DNA from: Patescibacteria group bacterium
GTDB lineage: Bacteria; Patescibacteriota; Microgenomatia; UBA12405
DNA length: 64,000 nucleotides
Reading direction: 5' to 3'
NCBI GenBank assembly: GCA_038062455.1
Contig: JBBTXE010000001.1
Coordinates: 381,760 to 445,759 of the forward strand
Shown: positions 3,082-54,336 of the stretch, in pieces
Position numbering within the stretch: the first letter of the stretch is position 1
Layout of the letters: every line of letters begins with the position of its first letter
Program-made: the position numbers and the translations under genes
Notes under the pieces: generated by a model
Told to the model about the DNA's origin: nothing
The model's input: only the letters and a program-made list of their open reading frames with translations
Database searches by the model: none

Positions 3082-4647
3082 TTGATAACTGCCATGAAAT
3101 ACATAGCCTATTGCAGAAAGTCCACTGATGAAAAAGACAAGCAAGTTTTGTCAATTGATGCTCAAATAGCAGAACTTAAAGAGTTTGCCAAGAAGCAAAA
3201 CTTGGAAATTTTAGATTTTGTAGTAGAATCTCGCACAGCCAAAGTCCCGGGGCGACCATTGTTTAACGAAATCCTCGTGCGAATTGAGAAAGGTGAAGCT
3301 CAAGGAATTGTCTCTTGGCACCCTGACCGTTTAGCCAGGAATAGTGTGGATGGTGGAAAAATAATCTACTCACTTGATACTGGGAAGCTAGTTGATCTAA
3401 AATTTCCCTCATTTTGGTTTGAGAATTCACCTCAGGGTAAATTTGTACTCAATATTGCTTTTGGACAATCTAAATATTATGTAGATAATCTTAGCGAGAA
3501 TGTTAAGCGTGGAATGAGGCATAAAGTGAGAATTGGAGTCTGGCCTGTTCAAGCACCTCTTGGCTATTTAAATGACAAAAATACTAAAACGATAGTTATT
3601 GACCCTGTAAGATCCAAAATAACCAAAAAGGTTTTTGAGATGTTTGAGTCGGGAAAGCATTCTTTTACCTCAATTTCAGAATATTTGTTTAAACTAGGCA
3701 TAACTACTCGATTGGGGAGAAAACTTAATCCCGATACCATAAAAAGAATGCTTTCAAACAGATTTTACTTAGGTATTCTTAATTACAAAGGAGAGTTACA
3801 TAAAGGAATTCATAAACCCATTATTTCAAAAACGCTTTTTGATTCTGTCCAAAAGCAAATAGTTAAGTTTGAACGACCCAGAGAACATGGTCACGATTTT
3901 CCCTTTGTTGGTTTGGCTAAATGTGGTGAGTGCGGAGCTTCAATTACCGGTGAAGAACATGCTAGAAACTATAAAAATGGGAATTCTCAAACATTTGCAT
4001 ACTATAGATGTACTAAAAAACTTGGGAAATGCAGTCAAAAATACATTTCTCAAGAAGAATTTGAGCATCAATTAAAAGAAGAGTTACTTGATGTTGCCAT
4101 TCCTCAGGGCTGGTGGAGTGATTGGCTAGCTTGGGTTGAAAGAGACAAAATTAACGAGACAAAACTTGCAAGTCAAAGAGTTGTTGAGGTTGGAGAAGAA
4201 ATGCAGGAAGTTGATAGAAAACTAAACAAACTCCTTGATACTTATTTAGACTCAGTGGTTGATGAAGAGCAATACAAGGCAAAGAAAAATGAATTATTTG
4301 AACAAAAACTAAAACTTCAGGAAAAAATATCAAAAATTCAGAGTGGTGGTTCAAGTTGGCTCGAACCTTTCGAAGAGTTCTTAAAAAGCTCAATAAATTG
4401 CGGAAAAATCGCGCTTGGAAAAAATAATTTGCAAGAATTAAGGATTCTTGCAAGAAATGCCGGCTCGAACTTCTTTCTTTCTGAAAAACGCCTTTCTTTT
4501 GTCCCCAATTTGGGCTTTGATTCGGTCAAATCTTGGCGTGGCAGTCGGCCATCTGCCACCGCCTTCTCTGCGAAATCTGAAAGTGTGAGCCGTGAGAGAC
4601 TCGAACTCTCGACCAATCGCTTAAGAGGCGATTGCTCTACCGACTGA
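3082..4647 (+). CDS. large serine recombinase (resolvase/invertase N-terminal catalytic domain + recombinase domain + zinc ribbon + coiled-coil); the C-terminal tail reads through IR-B and into tRNA-Lys
   Basis: YCRKSTDEKDKQ holds the catalytic-Ser motif of serine recombinases. CGECG...YYRCTKKLGKC is a zinc ribbon typical of large serine recombinases, followed by a coiled-coil C-terminus. The stop codon falls only inside the tRNA (4645-4647), so the last ~45 aa are probably read-through. Confidence 0.75.
   Translation: MITAMKYIAYCRKSTDEKDKQVLSIDAQIAELKEFAKKQNLEILDFVVESRTAKVPGRPLFNEILVRIEKGEAQGIVSWHPDRLARNSVDGGKIIYSLDTGKLVDLKFPSFWFENSPQGKFVLNIAFGQSKYYVDNLSENVKRGMRHKVRIGVWPVQAPLGYLNDKNTKTIVIDPVRSKITKKVFEMFESGKHSFTSISEYLFKLGITTRLGRKLNPDTIKRMLSNRFYLGILNYKGELHKGIHKPIISKTLFDSVQKQIVKFERPREHGHDFPFVGLAKCGECGASITGEEHARNYKNGNSQTFAYYRCTKKLGKCSQKYISQEEFEHQLKEELLDVAIPQGWWSDWLAWVERDKINETKLASQRVVEVGEEMQEVDRKLNKLLDTYLDSVVDEEQYKAKKNELFEQKLKLQEKISKIQSGGSSWLEPFEEFLKSSINCGKIALGKNNLQELRILARNAGSNFFLSEKRLSFVPNLGFDSVKSWRGSRPSATAFSAKSESVSRERLELSTNRLRGDCSTD
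4485..4587. repeat. IR-B right arm, abutting the tRNA-Lys 3' end
   Basis: Reverse complement of 2946-3050. Confidence 0.8.
4584..4602. repeat. 19-bp direct repeat copy within the tRNA-Lys 3' end (attR-like)
   Basis: Identical to 1068-1086. Confidence 0.6.
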
Positions 4648-4658
4648 GCTAACGGCTC
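4586..4658 (-). tRNA. tRNA-Lys (anticodon CTT)
   Basis: Cloverleaf read from the reverse complement: acceptor GAGCCGT/ACGGCTC, D-arm GCTCAGTCGGTAGAGC, anticodon loop CTCTTAA, T-arm GAGAGTTCGAGTCTCTC. Confidence 0.8.
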
Positions 4659-4661
4659 GTG

Positions 4662-4733
4662 TGCGCCTAGGGGGAATCGAACCCTCATCACTAGTTCCGA
4701 AGACTAGGACTCTATCCGTTGAGCTATAGGCGC
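4662..4733 (-). tRNA. tRNA-Arg (anticodon TCG)
   Basis: Reverse complement gives acceptor GCGCCTA/TAGGCGC, anticodon stem CTAGT with loop CTTCGGA, and T-loop TTCGATT. Confidence 0.7.
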
Positions 4734-4750
4734 CATTATAACGAATATTA

Positions 4751-4826
4751 GGTATCCCCAGCAGGGATCGAACCTGCGGCCTTCTCCTTAGAGGGGAGAC
4801 GCTCTATCCAACTGAGCTATGGGGAC
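4751..4826 (-). tRNA. tRNA-Arg (anticodon TCT)
   Basis: Reverse complement gives acceptor GTCCCCA/TGGGGAT, D-arm GCTCAGTTGGATAGAGC, anticodon loop CCTCTAA, and T-arm GCAGGTTCGATCCCTGC. Confidence 0.75.
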
Positions 4827-4880
4827 AAATGTTAATGTAAAACAAGAGTATTTTACCAATTATATTGATAATATTTATTT

Positions 4881-4962
4881 TTCAATAGATAATACGTAGA
4901 GCCGCTGTGGTGAAATTGGTATACACGTACGCTTTAGGAGCGTATGCCGAAAGGTGTGGAGG
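4881..4962 (+). tRNA. tRNA-Leu (anticodon TAG), type II with long variable arm
   Basis: Acceptor GCCGCTG/CAGCGGC, anticodon loop TTTAGGA, a 13-nt variable arm, and T-loop TTCGACT. Confidence 0.75.
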
Positions 4963-5002
4963 TTCGACTCCTCTCAGCGGCACTAAAATGTTAAACTGAT
5001 TC

Positions 5003-12162: not shown

Positions 12163-12210
12163 CTTTTATTATACTTAATACATAATACTTAATACTTAAT
12201 ACATCCCCAC

Positions 12211-13719: not shown

Positions 13720-14303
13720 AACTAAATCTATATTTAATCCCCAGCCTTGGCAGTAACTGCATTGATGATGGTTACCAACCAATAAAAAATAAATTAAAAG
13801 ATAAATTTAATGTAATTTATTCGAATATAAACTGGAAAAACTCATCTATCACCGAATGGTCAAAACAATTTACCCAACATTATCTCTCAACTAAAGCAAT
13901 AAAAAATATCATCGTCGGATTTTCTTACGGTGCAATGACTGCAATCAACGCAACCACAAATTTATCCCCAAACGAATTGATACTATGCTCTCTTTCTCCC
14001 TTCTTTTCCGAGTATCTAAACAAATTACCAAAAACATGGATTAGGTCTGAAAGCAAAAAAAGACTTTACGGTTTTAAAAACTGCTCAATCGAAAAAATCG
14101 CCAAATCAATTATCGACAAAAAGATAAACATACACCTAATGGTTGGTGAAAAAGAGTTAAAAATTTGGCCATCGATGAAATCAGCTACTTTCGAATTTAA
14201 TAAAATTTTAAAACCTAAAGATTTTATTATAGTTTCCAAAGCCAGACATCGTCTCGAAGAAAATTACCAAAATGAATTAATAAAACTTCTTCAACACCTA
14301 TGA
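13716..14303 (+). CDS. hypothetical alpha/beta-hydrolase-like protein (GFSYG nucleophile-elbow-like motif) inserted between pheS and pheT
   Basis: 195-aa ORF with a GxSxG-like motif (GFSYGA). Its codon usage is A/T-rich compared with the flanking pheS and pheT. Overlapping starts and stops (ATGA) at both ends. Confidence 0.35.
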   Translation: MKLNLYLIPSLGSNCIDDGYQPIKNKLKDKFNVIYSNINWKNSSITEWSKQFTQHYLSTKAIKNIIVGFSYGAMTAINATTNLSPNELILCSLSPFFSEYLNKLPKTWIRSESKKRLYGFKNCSIEKIAKSIIDKKINIHLMVGEKELKIWPSMKSATFEFNKILKPKDFIIVSKARHRLEENYQNELIKLLQHL

Positions 14304-16102
14304 AACTAATATATTCCGAAATTAAAAAATGGCTGCCCGCTCTTCCCGTCGACACCAAAACTCTCCGCGATGATCTAACCCTCATTGGTCACTTCGTCTC
14401 CGGTTTTGAAAACATTGACGGCGAAACTGTTCTCGACTTGGAAATTCGTCAAAATCGGGCTGATTGTCTGGGCTACTACGGTGTCGCCCGTGATTTAGCC
14501 GTTCTTTATAAAATCAATCTGACACTGCCTCAGATAAATACCATAAATTACGCCGATATTCCCGTTCCTGTTACTATTTCTTCCTCTGATGTCCATCGAA
14601 TTCAAGCCACCTCAATTTCTGGTATAAAAAATTATCCGTCCCCCGATTGGTTAGTCAAATTTTTAAAACTTCACGATATAAATTCCATCAATACCTTGGT
14701 TGATCTCACTAATTACGCCATGTTGGAGTGGGGAATTCCCTGCCACGCTTTTGACACCAACAAGTCAGCCAAGCTAATTTGGGAAAATAATCAAAAATAT
14801 TCCGAATTTATCTCACTAGATGGCACCAAGATTAAACTCCAACCTCAAAATTTAGTCATTTCTGACGGCAAAGAGGTTTTGTCCCTATCTTTCATTGGTG
14901 GCCAAAATTCCGGTATCGACTTAACTACCACCGATTCCATTTTAGAAATGGCTGTCTATAATCGGGTTCGAATCAGAAACGATTCCCGCTCCTTAAAAAC
15001 TATCACCGAAGCCTCTATTCGTCTTGACAAAGAATTAGACACCGAAACCATCCCTCTAGCTTTCTCTCATCTTATTTCTCTGATTCAAGAACACTGTCAG
15101 GCCACGGTCAGCGGACAACTTCTTGATATCTATCCCCAAAGGCCACCTCTTATCTCCATTTCCTTCGATCCTCAAAAACCATCTCTTTATGCCGGCATAA
15201 AAATCGATGATGAATTTTCAAAAAAAACATTAACTGCTTTAAATTGTTCTGTTTCCCCTCTTGTCAAAGAGGGGATTAAGGGGAGATTGTTGGTCTCCCC
15301 ACCATCTCTTCGAAAAGATCTGACTATTGAAGAAGATCTAATCGAAGAAATTATCCGTTTTTACGGCTATAACAAAATTCCTACCAACGACCCAATCGAC
15401 TCTACCCAATTTCCCGACATCACCCCTCCAATTCTATATTTATGTGAAAAACTCAAAGACGATTTAGTCGGCCTTGGCTACAATGAAGTCCGCTCCTGGC
15501 CCCTGGTTCGTCATTGCGAGGAGCCATGCGACGCGGCAATCTCAACCCAAAACTCTATCAATTCTGACTATCCCTACCTTCGACAATCTATAATTCAATC
15601 CCTAAAAAATCAACTAGACCAATATTCCAAATATAAACTACCCCACCCTCAATTTTTCGAAATCGGCAAAATCTTTTTTCAAAAAGATGGCAAATATATT
15701 GAAAAATATGCCCTGGGGATTTATAACCCCAATATTGACCATCTTAGTAGAGACGTAGCGCGCTACGTCTCTACAGATCAGGTGAAGTTAGATGGTTCTT
15801 TTGCTGAAATCATCCTCGATGACCTCCCTAAACCTGACAAATATATCCCTAAGGTTATTAACAACAACGCTATTGAGCTAACTTCCCAAATTATTACTCT
15901 CGATGCCAATGTCAACCTTAAATCACCCCAAGATCCGGCCAAATTAATTGCCAAATACTCTGCTCTTATCGATCCATCCATCCTCTGGTCTATAGAAATC
16001 ATTGACATCTACCAAACCCGCTGCACTTTCCGTGTTTCCTACTACAACTGCGACCACAAAAACGCCAAAAAAATCCACCTTAAAACCTTCAATCTGATTT
16101 AG
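14300..16102 (+). CDS. pheT: phenylalanyl-tRNA synthetase beta subunit (no N-terminal tRNA-binding domain)
   Basis: The B3/4 domain carries GIPCHAFD. The B5 domain carries DLTIEEDLIEEIIRFYGYNKIP. A catalytic-like core and C-terminal domain follow. Confidence 0.85.
   Translation: MKLIYSEIKKWLPALPVDTKTLRDDLTLIGHFVSGFENIDGETVLDLEIRQNRADCLGYYGVARDLAVLYKINLTLPQINTINYADIPVPVTISSSDVHRIQATSISGIKNYPSPDWLVKFLKLHDINSINTLVDLTNYAMLEWGIPCHAFDTNKSAKLIWENNQKYSEFISLDGTKIKLQPQNLVISDGKEVLSLSFIGGQNSGIDLTTTDSILEMAVYNRVRIRNDSRSLKTITEASIRLDKELDTETIPLAFSHLISLIQEHCQATVSGQLLDIYPQRPPLISISFDPQKPSLYAGIKIDDEFSKKTLTALNCSVSPLVKEGIKGRLLVSPPSLRKDLTIEEDLIEEIIRFYGYNKIPTNDPIDSTQFPDITPPILYLCEKLKDDLVGLGYNEVRSWPLVRHCEEPCDAAISTQNSINSDYPYLRQSIIQSLKNQLDQYSKYKLPHPQFFEIGKIFFQKDGKYIEKYALGIYNPNIDHLSRDVARYVSTDQVKLDGSFAEIILDDLPKPDKYIPKVINNNAIELTSQIITLDANVNLKSPQDPAKLIAKYSALIDPSILWSIEIIDIYQTRCTFRVSYYNCDHKNAKKIHLKTFNLI
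15747..15774. repeat. 28-bp perfect palindrome gtagagacgtagcgcgctacgtctctac inside pheT (family P1)
   Basis: Perfectly self-complementary. Read in frame it encodes SRDVARYVST. The same 9-bp arms recur at 52045, 53089 and 53807. Confidence 0.85.
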
Positions 16103-16122
16103 CAGTCCCCGTCGGGGACTGC
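16102..16122. terminator. bidirectional GC hairpin between convergent pheT and PBP1A
   Basis: gcagtcccc-gtc-ggggactgc, a 9-bp stem in an AT-rich spacer. Confidence 0.5.
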
Positions 16123-16178
16123 TAACATAGTGATCAAAATAGAAAGTTCGGTATCTTAGGTAATTAATTTATATCAAT

Positions 16179-22451: not shown

Positions 22452-22469
22452 TTAAATTATACTTAATAC

Positions 22470-22718
22470 TTGATACGTAATACTATGAACTCAATCACCG
22501 ATGCCGCCAGTTACTTAATTAAGGCTATTTTACCTCCCGAAGCCAAAGTTGAAGTTAATACCCGCGAAGAAAACGGTACCATTATCATCGAAATTACTGC
22601 CATGTCGGAATATATTGGCCAGCTTATCGGTAAAGAAGGCAAGATTATCAAGTCCATCCGAACCCTTTTAAACCTGTCCTTTCCTGACCAAAAATATCTT
22701 TTGGAAATCAAGGAATAA
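22470..22718 (+). CDS. KH-domain RNA-binding protein (YlqC/UPF0109-like), canonical partner of rpsP
   Basis: IIIEITAMSEYIGQLIGKEGKIIKSIRTLLN has a KH-fold GxxG-type pattern. The alternative ATG is at 22485. Confidence 0.6.
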   Translation: MIRNTMNSITDAASYLIKAILPPEAKVEVNTREENGTIIIEITAMSEYIGQLIGKEGKIIKSIRTLLNLSFPDQKYLLEIKE

Positions 22719-40377: not shown

Positions 40378-40436
40378 TAATTATAATTTACAAATTAATT
40401 GATAATTGAGTTTTGATAATTGATTATTGGCCCTGC

Positions 40437-40868
40437 TTATGGGTTTGTCACCCGATAGTTGCACGTCCCTCCGCAACCCGCCCCATAACTTCCATTAGTC
40501 GACCCCAAATCCTCCATCTTAGCATCCAAAGTATATTTATAGTTGTTACTGCCAACAACAATCAAATAACTATAAGTATCTCCTTTGGGGCCAGAGGGTA
40601 TAGCCTGAATATAATTCGGTGTCAAAGAGGTAATGACGCTTGGATATGTCGTTCCTGTCTGCCGCATTGCCTCCAACGCCAATCTCACTCTTTCTAAATC
40701 GCTTTGCCGTCTGGAATCCCGGGATTTCATATTGACTCCGGAAAAACTGACCACCCCAACCACCGAAACCACCATGATTATCGTTATCACTACGATCAAT
40801 TCAATTAAACTAAAAGCGTCATTCCCGCGAAAGCGGGAACCTATATTTGATTTTATTTCTTTTTTCAA
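40437..40868 (-). CDS. pseudopilin with extended leader MKKEIKSNIGSRFRGNDA|FSLIELIVV
   Basis: Prepilin-type N-terminus. The leader codons contain a P2 hairpin-palindrome (40821-40839). Confidence 0.65.
   Translation of the reverse strand: MKKEIKSNIGSRFRGNDAFSLIELIVVITIIMVVSVVGVVSFSGVNMKSRDSRRQSDLERVRLALEAMRQTGTTYPSVITSLTPNYIQAIPSGPKGDTYSYLIVVGSNNYKYTLDAKMEDLGSTNGSYGAGCGGTCNYRVTNP
40821..40839. repeat. P2 palindrome ttcccgcgaaagcgggaac in a pseudopilin leader (identical to the recG copy)
   Basis: Encodes GSRFRGN on the minus strand. Confidence 0.8.
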
Positions 40869-40897
40869 TTCGTAATTCGTAATTATTAATTCGTAAT
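40866..40897. repeat. tandem aattcgtaatt units in the pilin intergenic spacer
   Basis: aattcgtaattcgtaattattaattcgtaatt. Related TTCGTAATT units occur in the 43513 and 49788 repeats. Confidence 0.5.
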
Positions 40898-40901
40898 TAA
40901 C

Positions 40902-42332: not shown

Positions 42333-42358
42333 AAATTAGAAATTAGAAATTAGAAATT
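42333..42358. repeat. tandem aattagaa octamer x3 upstream of the pilin gene
   Basis: aattagaaattagaaattagaaatt in the 50-bp spacer. Confidence 0.55.
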
Positions 42359-43060: not shown

Positions 43061-43872
43061 CTAAATAAATTTACCATATTAATTATCTTTTCTCCCCATC
43101 CAAAAGCCACTCCTGTCCCCAAAATCAAAAACGGCCCAAAAGGAATCGGGTCAGTCTTTTTATTTTTTTTCAATATCAAAAGTATTACCGATACCAACGC
43201 CCCAACCACAAAGGCCAAATAGCCAGCTACCACCACTTTGGGAAATCCCAAAAAAAGACCGGAAAATATGGCATATTTAACATCGCCCATCCCCATTGCC
43301 TCTGATCCCCGAATCCTGATTCTATTCAGGATAAAAAAGAAACTCCCGCTTCCCACCCCTGACAATAAATACACCCAATAGTTTTCCCGACCAACCAACA
43401 TCGCCAAAGCCAATCCTATTAACAAATAATTAGCCATATCCGGCAAAATCATGTATTTCAAATCAAACACCAAAGAAAAAATCAACAAAGAGGTAATTAA
43501 TAAATACATTATTAATTCGTAATTTTGAGCCATGCGAAATCCTGTGGACGTAATTCGTAATTCGTAATTTAATAGAAATAATAACCCAGTCATTATTTCT
43601 ATTACCGGATATTCCCGGGGCAGGGGATTATCGCAACATCTTGTTTTTCCTTTCTGCATTACCCACGACAATACCGGTATATTTTCATACCACTTCAGCT
43701 GTTTCCCGCAATAATCACAAAAGGACCGACCACCAAAGTCATTGCGAGGAATCCGCCGTGGCGGACGACGAAGCAATCTGTATTTTACCGCCGTCCGATA
43801 CACCATCATATTAATAAAACTCCCCACCGCCAATCCCAAAACAAAAATCATTATTCCCAAAAACATTCCCAC
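43057..43872 (-). CDS. pilD: prepilin peptidase (A24 family)
   Basis: CDYCGKQLKWYENIPVLSWVMQKGKTRCC is the N-terminal zinc-binding Cys motif. MGMGDVKYAIFSGLFLGFP is the second catalytic Asp region. Multiple TM helices. Confidence 0.8.
   Translation of the reverse strand: MGMFLGIMIFVLGLAVGSFINMMVYRTAVKYRLLRRPPRRIPRNDFGGRSFCDYCGKQLKWYENIPVLSWVMQKGKTRCCDNPLPREYPVIEIMTGLLFLLNYELRITSTGFRMAQNYELIMYLLITSLLIFSLVFDLKYMILPDMANYLLIGLALAMLVGRENYWVYLLSGVGSGSFFFILNRIRIRGSEAMGMGDVKYAIFSGLFLGFPKVVVAGYLAFVVGALVSVILLILKKNKKTDPIPFGPFLILGTGVAFGWGEKIINMVNLFR
43513..43570. repeat. 58-bp repeat (taattcgtaattttgagccatgcgaaatcctgtggacgtaatt...) lying in frame inside pilD; second copy at 49788-49835
   Basis: ~41 bp identical to the intergenic copy plus related TTCGTAATT tails. 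Encodes NYELRITSTGFRMAQNYELI. Confidence 0.75.
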
Positions 43873-46908: not shown

Positions 46909-46944
46909 CGTAGTATTACGTATCACGTATTAAGTATTACGTAT
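46909..46944. repeat. TACGTAATAC/TACTTAATAC-type tandem decamers immediately 5' of the pilT start (minus strand)
   Basis: gtattacgtatcacgtattaagtattacgtataa. The same motif family occurs at 12171, 22457, 47325 and 53475. Confidence 0.6.
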
Positions 46945-46947
46945 AAT

Positions 46948-47313
46948 TTAATAATTATTTAAAAATTTAATTAACGAATTAATCAATTTACTAACACCAA
47001 CTGACAATTCGGCTAATTTTTTAAAATCTTCAATCTTAAGATAACCCACATCCCTTCCAATCAACATCTGGTTTTGGACTTCAGTTAACGATCCTAAAGA
47101 TAAATAATAAAACTGTTTTTTTTCTAAATTTGATCTTCGGGAAAACCCTTCAGCAATATTTGAAGAAACTGATACAGCTGCCCGTCTAATTTGATCCGAT
47201 AACCCCCTCACCTCATATTTCGGAAATCCTAAAGTGGCCCTATATATCCCCAAAACCATTTTATGAGCTTCTTGCCAGGCCTTTAAATCAGTAAATGATT
47301 TTATTTTCTCCAT
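46948..47313 (-). CDS. four-helix-bundle protein (23S rRNA IVS protein family), paralog of 28179-28529
   Basis: The sequence is FTDLKAWQEAHKMVLGIYRATLGFPKYEVRGLSDQIRRAAVSVSSNIAEGFSRRS. Confidence 0.65.
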   Translation of the reverse strand: MEKIKSFTDLKAWQEAHKMVLGIYRATLGFPKYEVRGLSDQIRRAAVSVSSNIAEGFSRRSNLEKKQFYYLSLGSLTEVQNQMLIGRDVGYLKIEDFKKLAELSVGVSKLINSLIKFLNNY

Positions 47314-47324
47314 TTTTTGTATTT

Positions 47325-47362
47325 ATACTTAATACTTGATACTTAATACATAATACTAGTAT
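47325..47362. repeat. TACTTAATAC tandem decamers 5' of the four-helix-bundle gene
   Basis: atacttaatacttgatacttaatacataatactagtat. Confidence 0.6.
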
Positions 47363-51393: not shown

Positions 51394-53331
51394 ATGATCA
51401 CTCTTTCCGATCCCAAACTCCAAAATATCTCTCCAGAAAGCCTGGGTGAACTTTTAATTGAAGCTAAAAAAAACTACTACACCGGCGGTCGTCCTATCAT
51501 GGATGACCATACCTACGACACCCTTGAAGAAATTCTAAAGAAAAAATTACCCTATCATCGGATTTTTTCCAAAATCGGCACTCCCAACTTTGACACCGGC
51601 TGGGAAAAGAAAACCCATACTCACCCCATGTCCTCCCAAAACAAGGTCAACACTTACGAAGATCTGGTTCATTATTTTACGCTAAAAAAACTACCTCAAA
51701 ATACCGAATTTGTCGTCCAGCCAAAGTGCGATGGTCTGTCAGTAGAAATTGAATATCAAAACGGAAAATTATTAGATGCCATTACCCGGGGTAATGGGGA
51801 AATGGGGGATTTAATCACCCAAAATGTAGTTAAAATGAAAAACCATGTCCCGCGCCTGACGCGGGATCTATCTTGCTCCATCCGATGTGAAATTGTAGTG
51901 GCAGAGACTGATTTTAAAAAACTAAACCAAATTGCCGATGAAAAATACAGTAATCCCCGAAACGCTGCCTCGGGCCTGTCTCAACGGCTTGATTCAAAAT
52001 ATGCCGAATATTGCAGCCTTATGGCGGTTGATATCTTGCCATCTGTAGAGACGTTGCGCGCAACGTCTCTACCAATAAATTCCGAGCAACAAAAAATCGG
52101 TTTATTAAATTCCCTCGGCTTTACCCCCGTCGAATCTCACCTTTGTCAAAATTTCGACAGCGTCGAAAAAATCTTTCAGAACCTTCTGATCAAACGTACC
52201 TCTTACCCCTTCAATATCGACGGCCTAGTTGTTAAAATCAATGACCTGAATATTACCCATAAACTCGGCAGTCTCAATAACCGTCCCAAATTTCAGGTCG
52301 CCTATAAATTCCCGCCGTCGACCAATCTCTCCACCATTAAAAAAATTGTTTGGCAGGTTGGCCCCATGGGTTCAATTACTCCGGTGGCCGAAATTGACCC
52401 CATCAAACTAAGTGGTGCCGTCATTACTTTTGCCTCGCTGGGTAACTACGATTTGATTATCAAAAAAAATATCAACCTCGGCGATGTCATTGAAATTTCC
52501 CGCCGGGGTGATGTTATTCCTCACATTGATAAAGTCGTTACCAAGGTTGCTTCCGGCCACATTTCCATCCCCACCCATTGCCCTGATTGCAAAAGTCCTC
52601 TGGCTAAAGAGGACAAATTTCTCCGCTGTCCCAATACCACCAACTGCCTTCCTCAAATAATCGGTTCTCTTAAACTTTTCTGCCAAACTCTCAACATCCT
52701 CGGTCTTTCTGACAAAACCATCGCCAAACTCTACTCTGCTAGCCGGGTTAAAACCCCCGGTGACTTTTTCAAACTAAAGGTCGGCGATATTGAAGATCTT
52801 GACAATTTAGGCGAAAAGTCAACCAAAAATATTATTTCTCAAATCCAGGCCAAAAGAAACCTAACTTTAAAAACCGCGTTCGACGCGGCCATTATTCCCA
52901 GTTTCAGCACTGCCAGAATCCAGCAATTAATCAACGCCGGTTTTAATACTCCCGACAAAATCCTAAACCTCACCATAAGTGACCTCTTATCAATTAAGGG
53001 TTTTCAAAAAACTCTCTCGAAAAAAATCATTGACGGTATTGCTCTTCGAAGAGAATGGATCGAATCAATTTTGTCTCAGATAAAAATCGTAGAGACGCAC
53101 GATCGCGCGTCTCTACAAAATATATCCTTCGCCATTACTGGCACCCTTTCTCTGCCTCGTCAAAAACTAATCGAGCAAATCGAAACCAATGGTGGCAAAT
53201 TCGTTTCGGTAGTTTCCTCCAACACTGACTATCTTTTAGCCAACTCTCCCTCCGATTCCGACAAATATCTTTCGGCTCTAAAATTAAACGTTAAAATAAT
53301 CTCCGAAAATGATTTTCAAAAGTTACTCTGA
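51394..53331 (+). CDS. ligA: NAD-dependent DNA ligase
   Basis: QPKCDGLSVEIEY is the KxDG adenylation motif. OB fold, Zn finger (CPDCKSPL..CPNTTNC), HhH repeats and a C-terminal BRCT domain follow. Confidence 0.9.
   Translation: MITLSDPKLQNISPESLGELLIEAKKNYYTGGRPIMDDHTYDTLEEILKKKLPYHRIFSKIGTPNFDTGWEKKTHTHPMSSQNKVNTYEDLVHYFTLKKLPQNTEFVVQPKCDGLSVEIEYQNGKLLDAITRGNGEMGDLITQNVVKMKNHVPRLTRDLSCSIRCEIVVAETDFKKLNQIADEKYSNPRNAASGLSQRLDSKYAEYCSLMAVDILPSVETLRATSLPINSEQQKIGLLNSLGFTPVESHLCQNFDSVEKIFQNLLIKRTSYPFNIDGLVVKINDLNITHKLGSLNNRPKFQVAYKFPPSTNLSTIKKIVWQVGPMGSITPVAEIDPIKLSGAVITFASLGNYDLIIKKNINLGDVIEISRRGDVIPHIDKVVTKVASGHISIPTHCPDCKSPLAKEDKFLRCPNTTNCLPQIIGSLKLFCQTLNILGLSDKTIAKLYSASRVKTPGDFFKLKVGDIEDLDNLGEKSTKNIISQIQAKRNLTLKTAFDAAIIPSFSTARIQQLINAGFNTPDKILNLTISDLLSIKGFQKTLSKKIIDGIALRREWIESILSQIKIVETHDRASLQNISFAITGTLSLPRQKLIEQIETNGGKFVSVVSSNTDYLLANSPSDSDKYLSALKLNVKIISENDFQKLL
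51848..51866. repeat. P2-family palindrome tcccgcg-cctga-cgcggga inside ligA
   Basis: Encodes VPRLTRD. The arms are identical to the pilin-leader and recG copies. Confidence 0.7.
52045..52072. repeat. 28-bp perfect palindrome gtagagacgttgcgcgcaacgtctctac inside ligA (family P1)
   Basis: Self-complementary. In frame it encodes VETLRATSL. Confidence 0.85.
52874..52888. repeat. ccgcgttcgacgcgg 15-mer (P3) inside ligA
   Basis: Encodes TAFDAA. Identical to the 54135 and 17576 copies. Confidence 0.8.
53089..53116. repeat. 28-bp P1 palindrome gtagagacgcacgatcgcgcgtctctac inside ligA (one arm mismatch in the centre)
   Basis: Encodes VETHDRASL. Confidence 0.8.
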
Positions 53332-53716
53332 AGCCGCATCTTTATTGGCTCAAAAAATTCATCAAGAAAATTTTTCCGACATCTCTTTGGTTTATATCAA
53401 CCCTGAATCAAAAACTTTCGCCGAATTAGTTGCTAATCAATTAAATTTATCTCTTATTCTTCTCTCTGATCCCCAATACTTAATACTTAATACTAAATAC
53501 TTAATACTAATTGACATTGGTTCAACCAACTCTGTTGAGTATAATGAATTTACTGACAAAATCCGTAAAACCTATCCATCTACCAAAATCATTCTGGCCA
53601 TTCCGGTTATCCCCGAATCGGAAAAAACCACCCTCGAATCGGTTTGTGACACCCTTATCTACCTCCATTCCGACCCCTATTTTTTCTCCCTTTCCCAATT
53701 CTTTCCGCTAAAATAA
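53309..53716 (+). CDS. hypothetical protein (doubtful; contains a TACTTAATAC decamer array)
   Basis: 135-aa ORF overlapping the ligA end. It may instead be a long leader region for pth. Confidence 0.2.
   Translation: MIFKSYSEAASLLAQKIHQENFSDISLVYINPESKTFAELVANQLNLSLILLSDPQYLILNTKYLILIDIGSTNSVEYNEFTDKIRKTYPSTKIILAIPVIPESEKTTLESVCDTLIYLHSDPYFFSLSQFFPLK
53475..53510. repeat. TACTTAATAC tandem decamers
   Basis: aatacttaatacttaatactaaatacttaatactaa. Confidence 0.6.
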
Positions 53717-53719
53717 AAC

Positions 53720-54274
53720 ATGAAACTCTTTTTTGGTCTGGGCAATCCCGGTACTAAATATCAAAACACCCGTCATAATGTTGGGCAAACACTTATCAAA
53801 AAATACGTAGAGACGTTTTGCAAAACGTCTCTACAGAATAAGAACAAGTTAAATTCAAAGATCGCCGAAATCAACCATAATTTTTTTGCCGTCTCTACCG
53901 AATACATGAATAATTCCGGAGTTTCAGTTAAAAAAGTAGCTGATTATTATAAAATCCCTCCCGAAAACATTTACCTCATTCACGATGACCTTGATTTGGG
54001 AGTAGGGGAGTGGAAACTCCAATTTAACCGCGGTCCCGCCGGCCACAATGGTGTTATCTCCACCATCGAGCATCTCGGTACTCAAGCTTTCTGGCGCATT
54101 CGTATTGGAATTGACCATCCTCAAAACGGCGAAGCCGCGTTCGACGCGGTTGAAGATTATGTTTTGCGACCTTTCACTAAAGAGGAAAAAGTTATCATCG
54201 CCGAAACTACTGATAAAATAACACGAAGTGTTATCCCAGACTTGATCCGGGATCCACCCCAATTGGGCCATTAG
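53720..54274 (+). CDS. pth: peptidyl-tRNA hydrolase
   Basis: MKLFFGLGNPGTKYQNTRHNVGQ is the Pth N-terminal signature (GLGNPG..Y..TRHN.G). The conserved HDDLDL region is present. Confidence 0.9.
   Translation: MKLFFGLGNPGTKYQNTRHNVGQTLIKKYVETFCKTSLQNKNKLNSKIAEINHNFFAVSTEYMNNSGVSVKKVADYYKIPPENIYLIHDDLDLGVGEWKLQFNRGPAGHNGVISTIEHLGTQAFWRIRIGIDHPQNGEAAFDAVEDYVLRPFTKEEKVIIAETTDKITRSVIPDLIRDPPQLGH
53807..53834. repeat. 28-bp perfect P1 palindrome gtagagacgttttgcaaaacgtctctac inside pth
   Basis: Encodes VETFCKTSL. A half-site cgtctctac recurs at 53891-53899. Confidence 0.85.
54135..54149. repeat. ccgcgttcgacgcgg 15-mer (P3) inside pth
   Basis: Encodes AAFDAV. Confidence 0.8.
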
Positions 54275-54336
54275 CTTATCTGGTAGAGCACCGCATTCGC
54301 ATTGCGGAAGGGGCGGTCCGACTCCGCCATGGTCCA
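54265..54336 (+). tRNA. tRNA-Ala (anticodon CGC) with a G3:U70 identity pair; overlaps the pth stop by ~10 nt
   Basis: Acceptor GGGCCAT/ATGGTCC (G3-T70), D-arm GCTTATCTGGTAGAGC, anticodon stem CCGCA with loop TTCGCAT, and T-arm GGCGGTCCGACTCCGCC (atypical T-loop TCCGACT). Confidence 0.6.

Follow-up and report, generated by a model that had tools for sequence, protein, structure and literature searches.

Why do the genes for a tRNA synthetase, a DNA ligase and a peptidyl-tRNA hydrolase of one bacterium all carry, in frame, the same short palindrome? The question is raised by a stretch of 64,000 nt (64 kb) of the contig JBBTXE010000001.1 (positions 381,760 to 445,759, forward strand; assembly GCA_038062455.1, a Patescibacteria group bacterium), which as a whole is called the window in the following. 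A preliminary description of this DNA had pointed out four 28-bp palindromes with identical 9-bp arms, one in pheT, two in ligA and one in pth. We find that these four palindromes are very probably copies of a known family of double-foot repetitive extragenic palindromes (REPs), namely the family that accompanies the subclass 2.4 genes for REP-associated tyrosine transposases (RAYTs, also called TnpA_REP). The family of 28-nt REPs with these arms is already published; what is reported here are new copies and a new host clade. The double-foot REP family is extended to bacteria of the candidate phyla radiation (CPR), which have very small genomes.

Results and Discussion

The search of the whole window with the pattern GTAGAGACG-N10-CGTCTCTAC gave four exact matches (Table 1), no additional one when up to two mismatches were allowed, and none at all in 100 dinucleotide-preserving shuffles. 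The looser pattern GTAG-N20-CTAC returned the same four copies only, compared with 0.10 expected by chance. Pattern search, open reading frames (ORFs) and Pfam agree on the four palindromes and on their location in the three genes, just as first described, and the reading frames that had been assigned to them are also the ones that we find: three copies are read in one phase and the copy in pheT in another. The claim that the centres are palindromic as well stands for three of them, while the remaining one, CACGATCGCG, contains one A/C mismatch. All four copies start with 5' GTAG and end with CTAC 3', i.e., with ends of the GT[AG]G / C[TC]AC double-foot type.

Each copy is predicted to fold as a DNA hairpin with an energy that beats all 200 shuffles. 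The predicted structure is a 12-bp stem with a 4-nt loop in three of the four, and a 10-bp stem in the copy at 53089, the one with the mismatched centre. The sequences around the four copies have nothing in common and no longer conserved flank is present. A stretch of 1.8 kb holds three of the copies, a clustering for which a rough scan estimate gives a chance of about 0.01. The palindromes are not an assembly artefact, because the identical LigA protein recurs on contigs from separate samples: it is encoded on eight contigs, and the four of these that are shown represent four separate samples (one NCBI assembly of a metagenome-assembled genome and three sequencing runs). A known structured RNA family was considered and rejected, since Rfam matches nothing at the palindrome sites; in the scan of the window only six tRNAs reach the gathering score, and none of them overlaps the palindromes.

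Table 1. Features of the window discussed in the text. Positions are those of the 64,000-nt stretch; the hairpin column gives the predicted DNA folding energy and its z value.
Feature	Position	Strand	Centre or unit	Location and reading	Hairpin	Evidence
REP copy	15747..15774		TAGCGCGCTA	pheT, phase 1, SRDVARYVST, residues 483-492	-11.7 kcal/mol, z = -4.4	exact match
REP copy	52045..52072		TTGCGCGCAA	ligA site 1, adenylation-domain loop, phase 0, VETLRATSL, residues 218-226	-12.0 kcal/mol, z = -6.0	exact match
REP copy	53089..53116		CACGATCGCG	ligA site 2, HhH-BRCT linker, phase 0, VETHDRASL, residues 566-574	-10.4 kcal/mol, z = -4.2	exact arms
REP copy	53807..53834		TTTTGCAAAA	pth, phase 0, VETFCKTSL, residues 30-38	-11.6 kcal/mol, z = -7.4	exact match
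pheT, phenylalanine-tRNA ligase beta subunit	14300..16102	+		600 aa		ORF; Pfam B3_4, B5, tRNA_synthFbeta
ligA, NAD-dependent DNA ligase	51394..53331	+		645 aa, two copies		ORF; Pfam DNA_ligase_aden, OB, HHH_5, BRCT
pth, peptidyl-tRNA hydrolase	53720..54274	+		184 aa		ORF; Pfam Pept_tRNA_hydro
tRNA cluster, five genes	4586..4982					Rfam
tRNA gene	54265..54336			overlaps the end of pth		Rfam
Inverted repeat	16099..16125		TTAGCAGTCCCCG / CGGGGACTGCTAA	overlaps the pheT stop codon		perfect, 13 bp
Period-7 array	12171..12202					
Period-7 array	22459..22484					
Period-7 array	40396..40429					
Period-7 array	40867..40898					
Period-7 array	42333..42358					
Period-7 array	43549..43569			deep inside a 272-codon ORF		
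Period-7 array	46912..46959					
Period-7 array	47325..47357					
Period-7 array	53475..53508			deep inside a 135-aa ORF between ligA and pth		

The family was assigned by comparison with the REPs compiled by Quentin et al. (BMC Genomics 2018, 19:475; PMC6006769). There, double-foot REPs with the ends 5' GT[AG]G and C[TC]AC 3' belong to TnpA_REP subclass 2.4, which is the same as the group 4 RAYTs of Bertels. Table S1 of that study contains GTAGAGACGCACGGCCGTGCGTCTCTAC for ACL24330.1, a 28-nt REP of subclass 2.4 with GTAG as its foot, a stem of 12 nt, the loop GGCC and the double-foot entry T, and GTAGAGACGCAATGCATTGCGTCTCTAC for ABB28784.1 (28-nt REP, 12-nt stem, 4-nt loop, double foot), together with near variants under the entries CalsA01 and ChutA01. 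The arms in the window are identical to those of the REPs of ACL24330.1 and ABB28784.1, and the difference is confined to the variable centre. Subclass 2.4 double-foot REPs are reported from Cyanobacteria, Bacteroidetes, Chloroflexi, Chlorobi and other phyla, and in-frame insertions within genes are described for them (PMC6006769). A full-text literature search with the arm sequences gave primer lists and unrelated papers only, and the supplementary material of Di Nocera et al. 2013 (PMC3733652) lacks the arm sequence. Among the possibilities that had been named at the outset, the miniature mobile palindrome or nuclease recognition dyad fits, given that the element is a catalogued REP of subclass 2.4 RAYT genes, whose products are HUH-Y1 enzymes.

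The link to RAYT genes is also seen when the palindrome alone is used to pick loci. Scanning one genome per species for it returned at least 120 loci, and among those listed seven have a RAYT-like ORF that contains the palindrome or lies at most 280 bp away from it. These ORFs show NH(L/F)H ... YIxNNP motifs and match the NCBIfam model NF047646, 'REP-associated tyrosine transposase' (E values of 1e-15 to 1e-18), as well as the E. coli TnpA_REP structure, PDB 4ER8 (E value of 6e-6). NCBIfam, PDB and a profile of our own were used because Pfam Y1_Tnp scores insert-carrying RAYTs just below its cut-off (21 bits vs 23). Among the best 120 RAYT homologues of the profile search (P0121-P0240), several of which are named 'REP element-mobilizing transposase RayT', 100 contain the in-frame REP-encoded peptide, mostly as VETHGRASL, which means that the putative transposase gene carries its own element along. 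One subclass 2.4 RAYT (L324, 3178-3798) is found on a contig labelled Candidatus Paceibacterota, which belongs to the CPR, where it lies between type I restriction-modification genes. Of the three REPs at this locus (3490, 3795 and 4564), the first is in the RAYT gene, the second overlaps its stop codon, which directly precedes the TAG of the element, and the third is a variant with GTTG...CAAC feet. The transposase gene whose linkage the preliminary description had proposed to check is hence found near the palindrome in other genomes, although not in the window itself.

The 28-mer is not restricted to a few groups. Among the matches listed it occurs in Bacteroidota, in Nostocales and other Cyanobacteria, and in Anaerolineae, Acidobacteria, Planctomycetes, Zixibacteria, Spirochaetes and others. 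The anatomy of the element was derived from 125 non-redundant genomic copies. In 69% of them the 10-bp centre is a perfect palindrome, and 78% have palindromic bases at the four central positions, compared with a chance expectation of 6%. A pyrimidine stands at position -1 and a purine at position +1 in about 75%; beyond these two positions the 125 copies show no conserved flanking position and no target-site duplication, a feature which had been suggested as a possible trace of insertion. ORFs of at least 120 codons contain 38% of the copies. By its design this count excludes the phase that reads the TAG of the element, and the absence of the TAG phase is hence no independent result. That one 28-mer is read in two phases and is found in unrelated genes as well as in intergenic DNA of many phyla bears out the original view of an element at the level of DNA rather than a conserved peptide. 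Additionally, the 28-mer is present in 116 stretches of viral contigs from IMG/VR (L205-L320), where long ORFs contain 58 of the 109 non-redundant copies. These 116 stretches gave no RAYT-like ORF. Phages may be carriers or spreaders of the 28-mer.

Two further readings of the dyad had been raised at the outset and can be weighed at this point. The arms hold outward-facing CGTCTC, and GAGACG/CGTCTC is the site of the type IIS enzyme BsmBI/Esp3I; moreover, the element is a perfect duplex palindrome. The dyad could accordingly be the site of a restriction-modification system or type IIS nuclease, or of a dimeric regulator. Yet CGTCTC/GAGACG occurs 13 times in the window outside of the elements while a first-order Markov model expects about 14, so that the motif is neither avoided nor enriched. 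The centre is freely variable, whereas regulator operators usually conserve it, every window copy is inside an ORF and none in a promoter, and the RAYT link already accounts for the conserved arms. We consider this explanation very improbable and gave up the restriction-site idea.

Even less credible is the idea that the 9-mer arms are DNA-uptake signals, arranged as inverted pairs, of a naturally competent CPR bacterium. Components of a type IV pilus are encoded in the neighbourhood of the window, and the uptake sequences of Neisseria often form inverted pairs, with an enrichment in genes for genome maintenance. Uptake sequences, however, occur about once per kb and mostly as single copies, whereas the 64 kb contain 9 exact 9-mers, of which 8 are palindrome arms and only one is solo. 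Nor does the identical 28-mer in many phyla and in viruses fit with a species-specific tag. The solo CGTCTCTAC (53890-53898), 56 bp downstream of the pth element, was considered separately as a relic of a further copy and rejected: it is native coding sequence for the V-S-T of the Pth motif FA(V/I)STEYMN, and related residues (mostly I-S-T) stand at these positions in many, although not all, Pth orthologues.

The individual sites were compared in 80 ligA loci of CPR relatives whose LigA is 54-74% identical, most of them including pth, and in 120 PheT homologues. At ligA site 1, the closest orthologues without the element (L121, L124 and L130) are shorter by exactly 10 codons (30 bp). This gap fits a 30-bp unit that consists of the 28-mer and its flanking Y and R, and judged from the aligned sequences ligA site 1 is a true, clean insertion of 10 codons.

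The same comparison yields observations that weigh against an origin of the four copies as mobile REPs, and they are gathered here with others of this kind. At ligA site 2, the element-free orthologues show no gap. Their linker has a similar length and is taken up by a different REP, by a heptamer array or by unique sequence. No gap is seen either at pth residues 30-38, where the element-free orthologues possess a stretch of similar length, or at pheT residues 483-492, where the element replaces about 8 codons with a net gain of 2 relative to the closest element-free orthologues and has no DNA similarity to the native LQSDLKKLNL. The insertion test, which the preliminary description had put forward, is therefore positive for ligA site 1 and negative for the other three sites with their stretches of about equal length, and a simple history in which 30 bp are inserted is supported at ligA site 1 only. 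Additionally, the 80 CPR loci contain 37 near-intact copies (at most one arm mismatch), 29 in ligA and 8 in pth, and zero in 557 kb of flanks. This pattern in the CPR clade differs from that of the classical REPs, which are dispersed and mainly extragenic. In pth, an intact 26-nt core is present at one codon offset (nt 88) in the window and in five relatives, six lineages which share 57-75% amino acid identity and 39-58% third-position identity, and neutral relics would not keep intact arms across such divergence. The Pth of the five relatives is 57-74% identical in amino acids to that of the window, and their centres agree with the window centre in between 0 and 10 of 10 positions. Furthermore, the profile built from six RAYTs detected no RAYT-like ORF either in the window with its 64 kb or in the 80 related CPR loci, which add up to about 750 kb. 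This absence is weak evidence and the sample is too small to inform, because one gene per genome of about 1 Mb is expected. Finally, to our knowledge the mobility of double-foot REPs has never been demonstrated experimentally.

Several of these points speak for a different explanation, in which the palindromes are selected, functional cis-acting hairpins of DNA or mRNA and owe their likeness to REPs to co-option and not to ongoing mobility. Such hairpins could pause replication, transcription or translation, or bind a hairpin-binding protein. The intact pth cores at one and the same codon and the confinement of all 37 near-intact copies to ligA or pth are in line with it, and so is a REP-type peptide, with several centre types, at the identical pheT site in 14 of the 120 PheT orthologues. 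The palindromic central four bases also belong here, since an RNA loop does not require them. On the other side, many orthologues are without the element at these sites, or contain a decayed REP (L153, L164 and L178) or a heptamer array in place of an intact copy. The centre of the window pth copy is identical in 0 of 10 positions to that of L123, the closest Pth relative in the set, but in 10 of 10 positions to that of the distant L181. The contexts of the 28-mers, moreover, vary across phyla and include unrelated genes, intergenic DNA, viral contigs and the neighbourhood of RAYT genes. We therefore regard selected hairpins as improbable, and continue with copies of the subclass 2.4 REP family as the preferred explanation.

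The heptamer arrays deserve a closer description. With roughly 3-5 copies of the unit they reach a length similar to that of the 28-mer, and they fill ligA site 2 or the pth stretch in many REP-free orthologues. The pth genes of L121, L122 and L130 contain (ACGAATT)n at about codons 30-40, and arrays in the ligA HhH-BRCT linker are found in L164, L130, L146, L154, L176 and L188, with (CTACGAT)n in L164 and (AATTTGA)n as another unit. The window, too, has period-7 arrays of about 3-5 copies (Table 1), built from the units ATACTTA (four loci), AATTCGT/CGTAATT, TAATTGA, AAATTAG and GTATTAC. They are mostly intergenic or at gene ends, apart from the two for which the table names an ORF. The same genes of CPR relatives also harbour other double-foot families with different arms (GTAGGGGCG..., GTAGGAACG..., GTAGGGAACG... 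and TAGAGGCG...CGCCTCTA), which we found at L131/L132 (about 1119-1156), L146 6574, L163 5552, L176 6538 and in pth of L128/L129.

In different genomes the same centres appear at different sites. The centre TTGCGCGCAA recurs at ligA site 1, ligA site 2 and pth, the centre C[AG]CGATCGTG at these three sites and at pheT, TTTTGCAAAA at pth and ligA site 1, and TAGCGCGCTA at pheT and ligA site 1. Together with CCATATATGG, they form a small shared repertoire. Neither simple vertical decay nor a random insertion that is afterwards tolerated explains the placement of the copies. It suggests that copies are renewed or exchanged repeatedly at a small number of acceptor positions, or that the hairpin is under selection. 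One may speculate, although we think it rather unlikely, that the REPs of this CPR clade, instead of being parasites that transpose at random, occupy fixed acceptor positions (at least two in ligA, one in pth and one or two in pheT) and that the 28-mer is swapped there repeatedly as a cassette by an HUH enzyme that cuts at both feet. Such a replacement of cassettes would account for the perfect arms over deep divergence, for the shuffled centres and for the heptamer arrays in the same slots. If this is true, REP-RAYT systems possess an exchange reaction directed to specific sites, or else a selected function, neither of which has so far been described for them. That distant relatives have the copies in the same few places of the same housekeeping genes, and there only, is in any case unusual and unexplained.

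How a copy might arise can be outlined on the basis of the established biochemistry of TnpA_REP and the IS200/IS605 enzymes. As single-stranded DNA the element would fold into a hairpin, and the RAYT would bind the folded hairpin plus the GTAG foot. It would then cleave and rejoin the strand, and copies would be made or exchanged in trans, with the element itself encoding nothing. The substrate would be the same on either strand, since the palindrome is perfect. An intragenic copy should survive only if the net change in length is a multiple of three, if the reading frame avoids the TAG of the element, and if the 9-10 extra residues sit in a tolerant loop or linker. Because of these three conditions, the copies that we see would be those read as in-frame VET-x4-SL or xRD-x4-VST peptides. 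That a RAYT catalyses the reaction in the present genome, and how copies are renewed at fixed sites, is inferred.

The placement of the peptides in loops or linkers is based on the Pfam domain limits and on the variability of the alignments. For ligA site 2 the Pfam limits put the peptide in the HhH-BRCT linker, as expected for a tolerant position. The fit is less clear at pheT, where the copy lies just past a truncated match to the CLM domain, and at ligA site 1 and pth, where the copies are inside the matches to the adenylation domain and the hydrolase domain, respectively.

The host genes and their surroundings gave a few additional observations. Homologues of PheT carry the names Ca. Shapirobacteria or Microgenomates, which places the host among the CPR bacteria. 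Some of them (P0020, P0033, P0049, P0053 and others) are 796-860 aa long and have about 250 extra residues with a tRNA-synt_2c domain (PF01411, alanyl-tRNA synthetase-type). The inverted repeat at the end of pheT, located between this gene and a convergent gene for a penicillin-binding protein, looks like a bidirectional terminator. Finally, all 4-kb bins of the window have a negative GC skew (-0.03 to -0.28), which places it entirely on one replication arm.

The identification as REPs explains the odd VETxxxxSL and RDxxxxVST peptides in many proteins predicted from metagenomes, and it serves as a warning, for annotation and for structure prediction, that the 9-10 residues derive from repeats. 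At matching codon positions of ligA, pth and pheT, different lineages have an intact REP with a swapped centre, a decayed REP, a heptamer array or nothing at all, and this series could make the function of the group 4 RAYT/REP system directly testable.

Comparison with Known Systems

The closest known counterparts are the subclass 2.4 REPs of Quentin et al. They share with the window copies the arms GTAGAGACG...CGTCTCTAC, the length of 28 nt, the 12-nt stem, the 4-nt palindromic loop, the GTAG/CTAC ends and the in-frame insertion into genes. The REPtrons of Quentin et al. differ as follows. The window host is a CPR bacterium of the Microgenomates (Shapirobacteria-like) with no RAYT seen in the 64 kb, and the copies in the CPR clade are limited to a few positions in ligA, pth and pheT and do not flank or interrupt a RAYT gene.

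The hairpin-forming small dispersed repeats of the Nostocales (Elhai et al. 2008) are reportedly about 21-27 nt long and embedded in tandem heptamer arrays. The likeness, which is one by description only, lies in the gene positions of the CPR relatives, which are occupied by the 28-mer in some and by a heptamer array in others, and in the many period-7 arrays of the window.

The classical REP, BIME and REPIN-RAYT systems of the Enterobacteria and Pseudomonas (RAYT groups 2 and 3) likewise consist of short GTAG-footed hairpin repeats, for which a single-copy HUH-Y1 enzyme that works on single-stranded DNA is likewise assumed. Part of the literature describes the classical REP-RAYT systems as vertically persistent. 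Classical REPs are mainly extragenic and single-footed, often with bulged stems, are arranged as spaced inverted pairs and number hundreds per genome, unlike the window copies, which are 28-bp palindromes, few and intragenic.

With the tagged REPs and the Rickettsia palindromic elements (RPEs), the window shares palindromic repeats that keep the reading frame of housekeeping genes and favour genes for DNA synthesis and repair, DNA ligase and tRNA synthetases. RPE-1 type elements measure about 100-150 bp, a length that the window element with its 28-30 bp and its conservation only to positions -1/+1 does not reach. The longer RPE-1 insertions were described in Rickettsia (Di Nocera et al. 2013, PMC3733652). 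The same study reports GTAG-tagged REPs inside genes, notably those for DNA synthesis and repair, DNA ligase and tRNA synthetases, and places RPE-4 and RPE-6 with those intragenic repeats of R. conorii which it counts as tagged REPs. The resemblance to Rickettsia RPEs that had been noticed in the preliminary description is therefore apt for these short elements. The intragenic REPs of R. conorii are counted in a CGTC-tagged super-family with no associated transposase (PMC3733652), in contrast to the window family, which is GTAG-tagged and RAYT-linked.

The subterminal hairpins of IS200/IS605 and of its miniature derivatives are likewise hairpins of single-stranded DNA that an HUH-Y1 enzyme recognises via a short guide or foot. 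In IS200/IS605, asymmetric left and right ends flank the transposase gene and insertion takes place beside a fixed tetra- or pentanucleotide, whereas the family described here has one symmetric hairpin, and its target preference consists only of a pyrimidine at -1 and a purine at +1.

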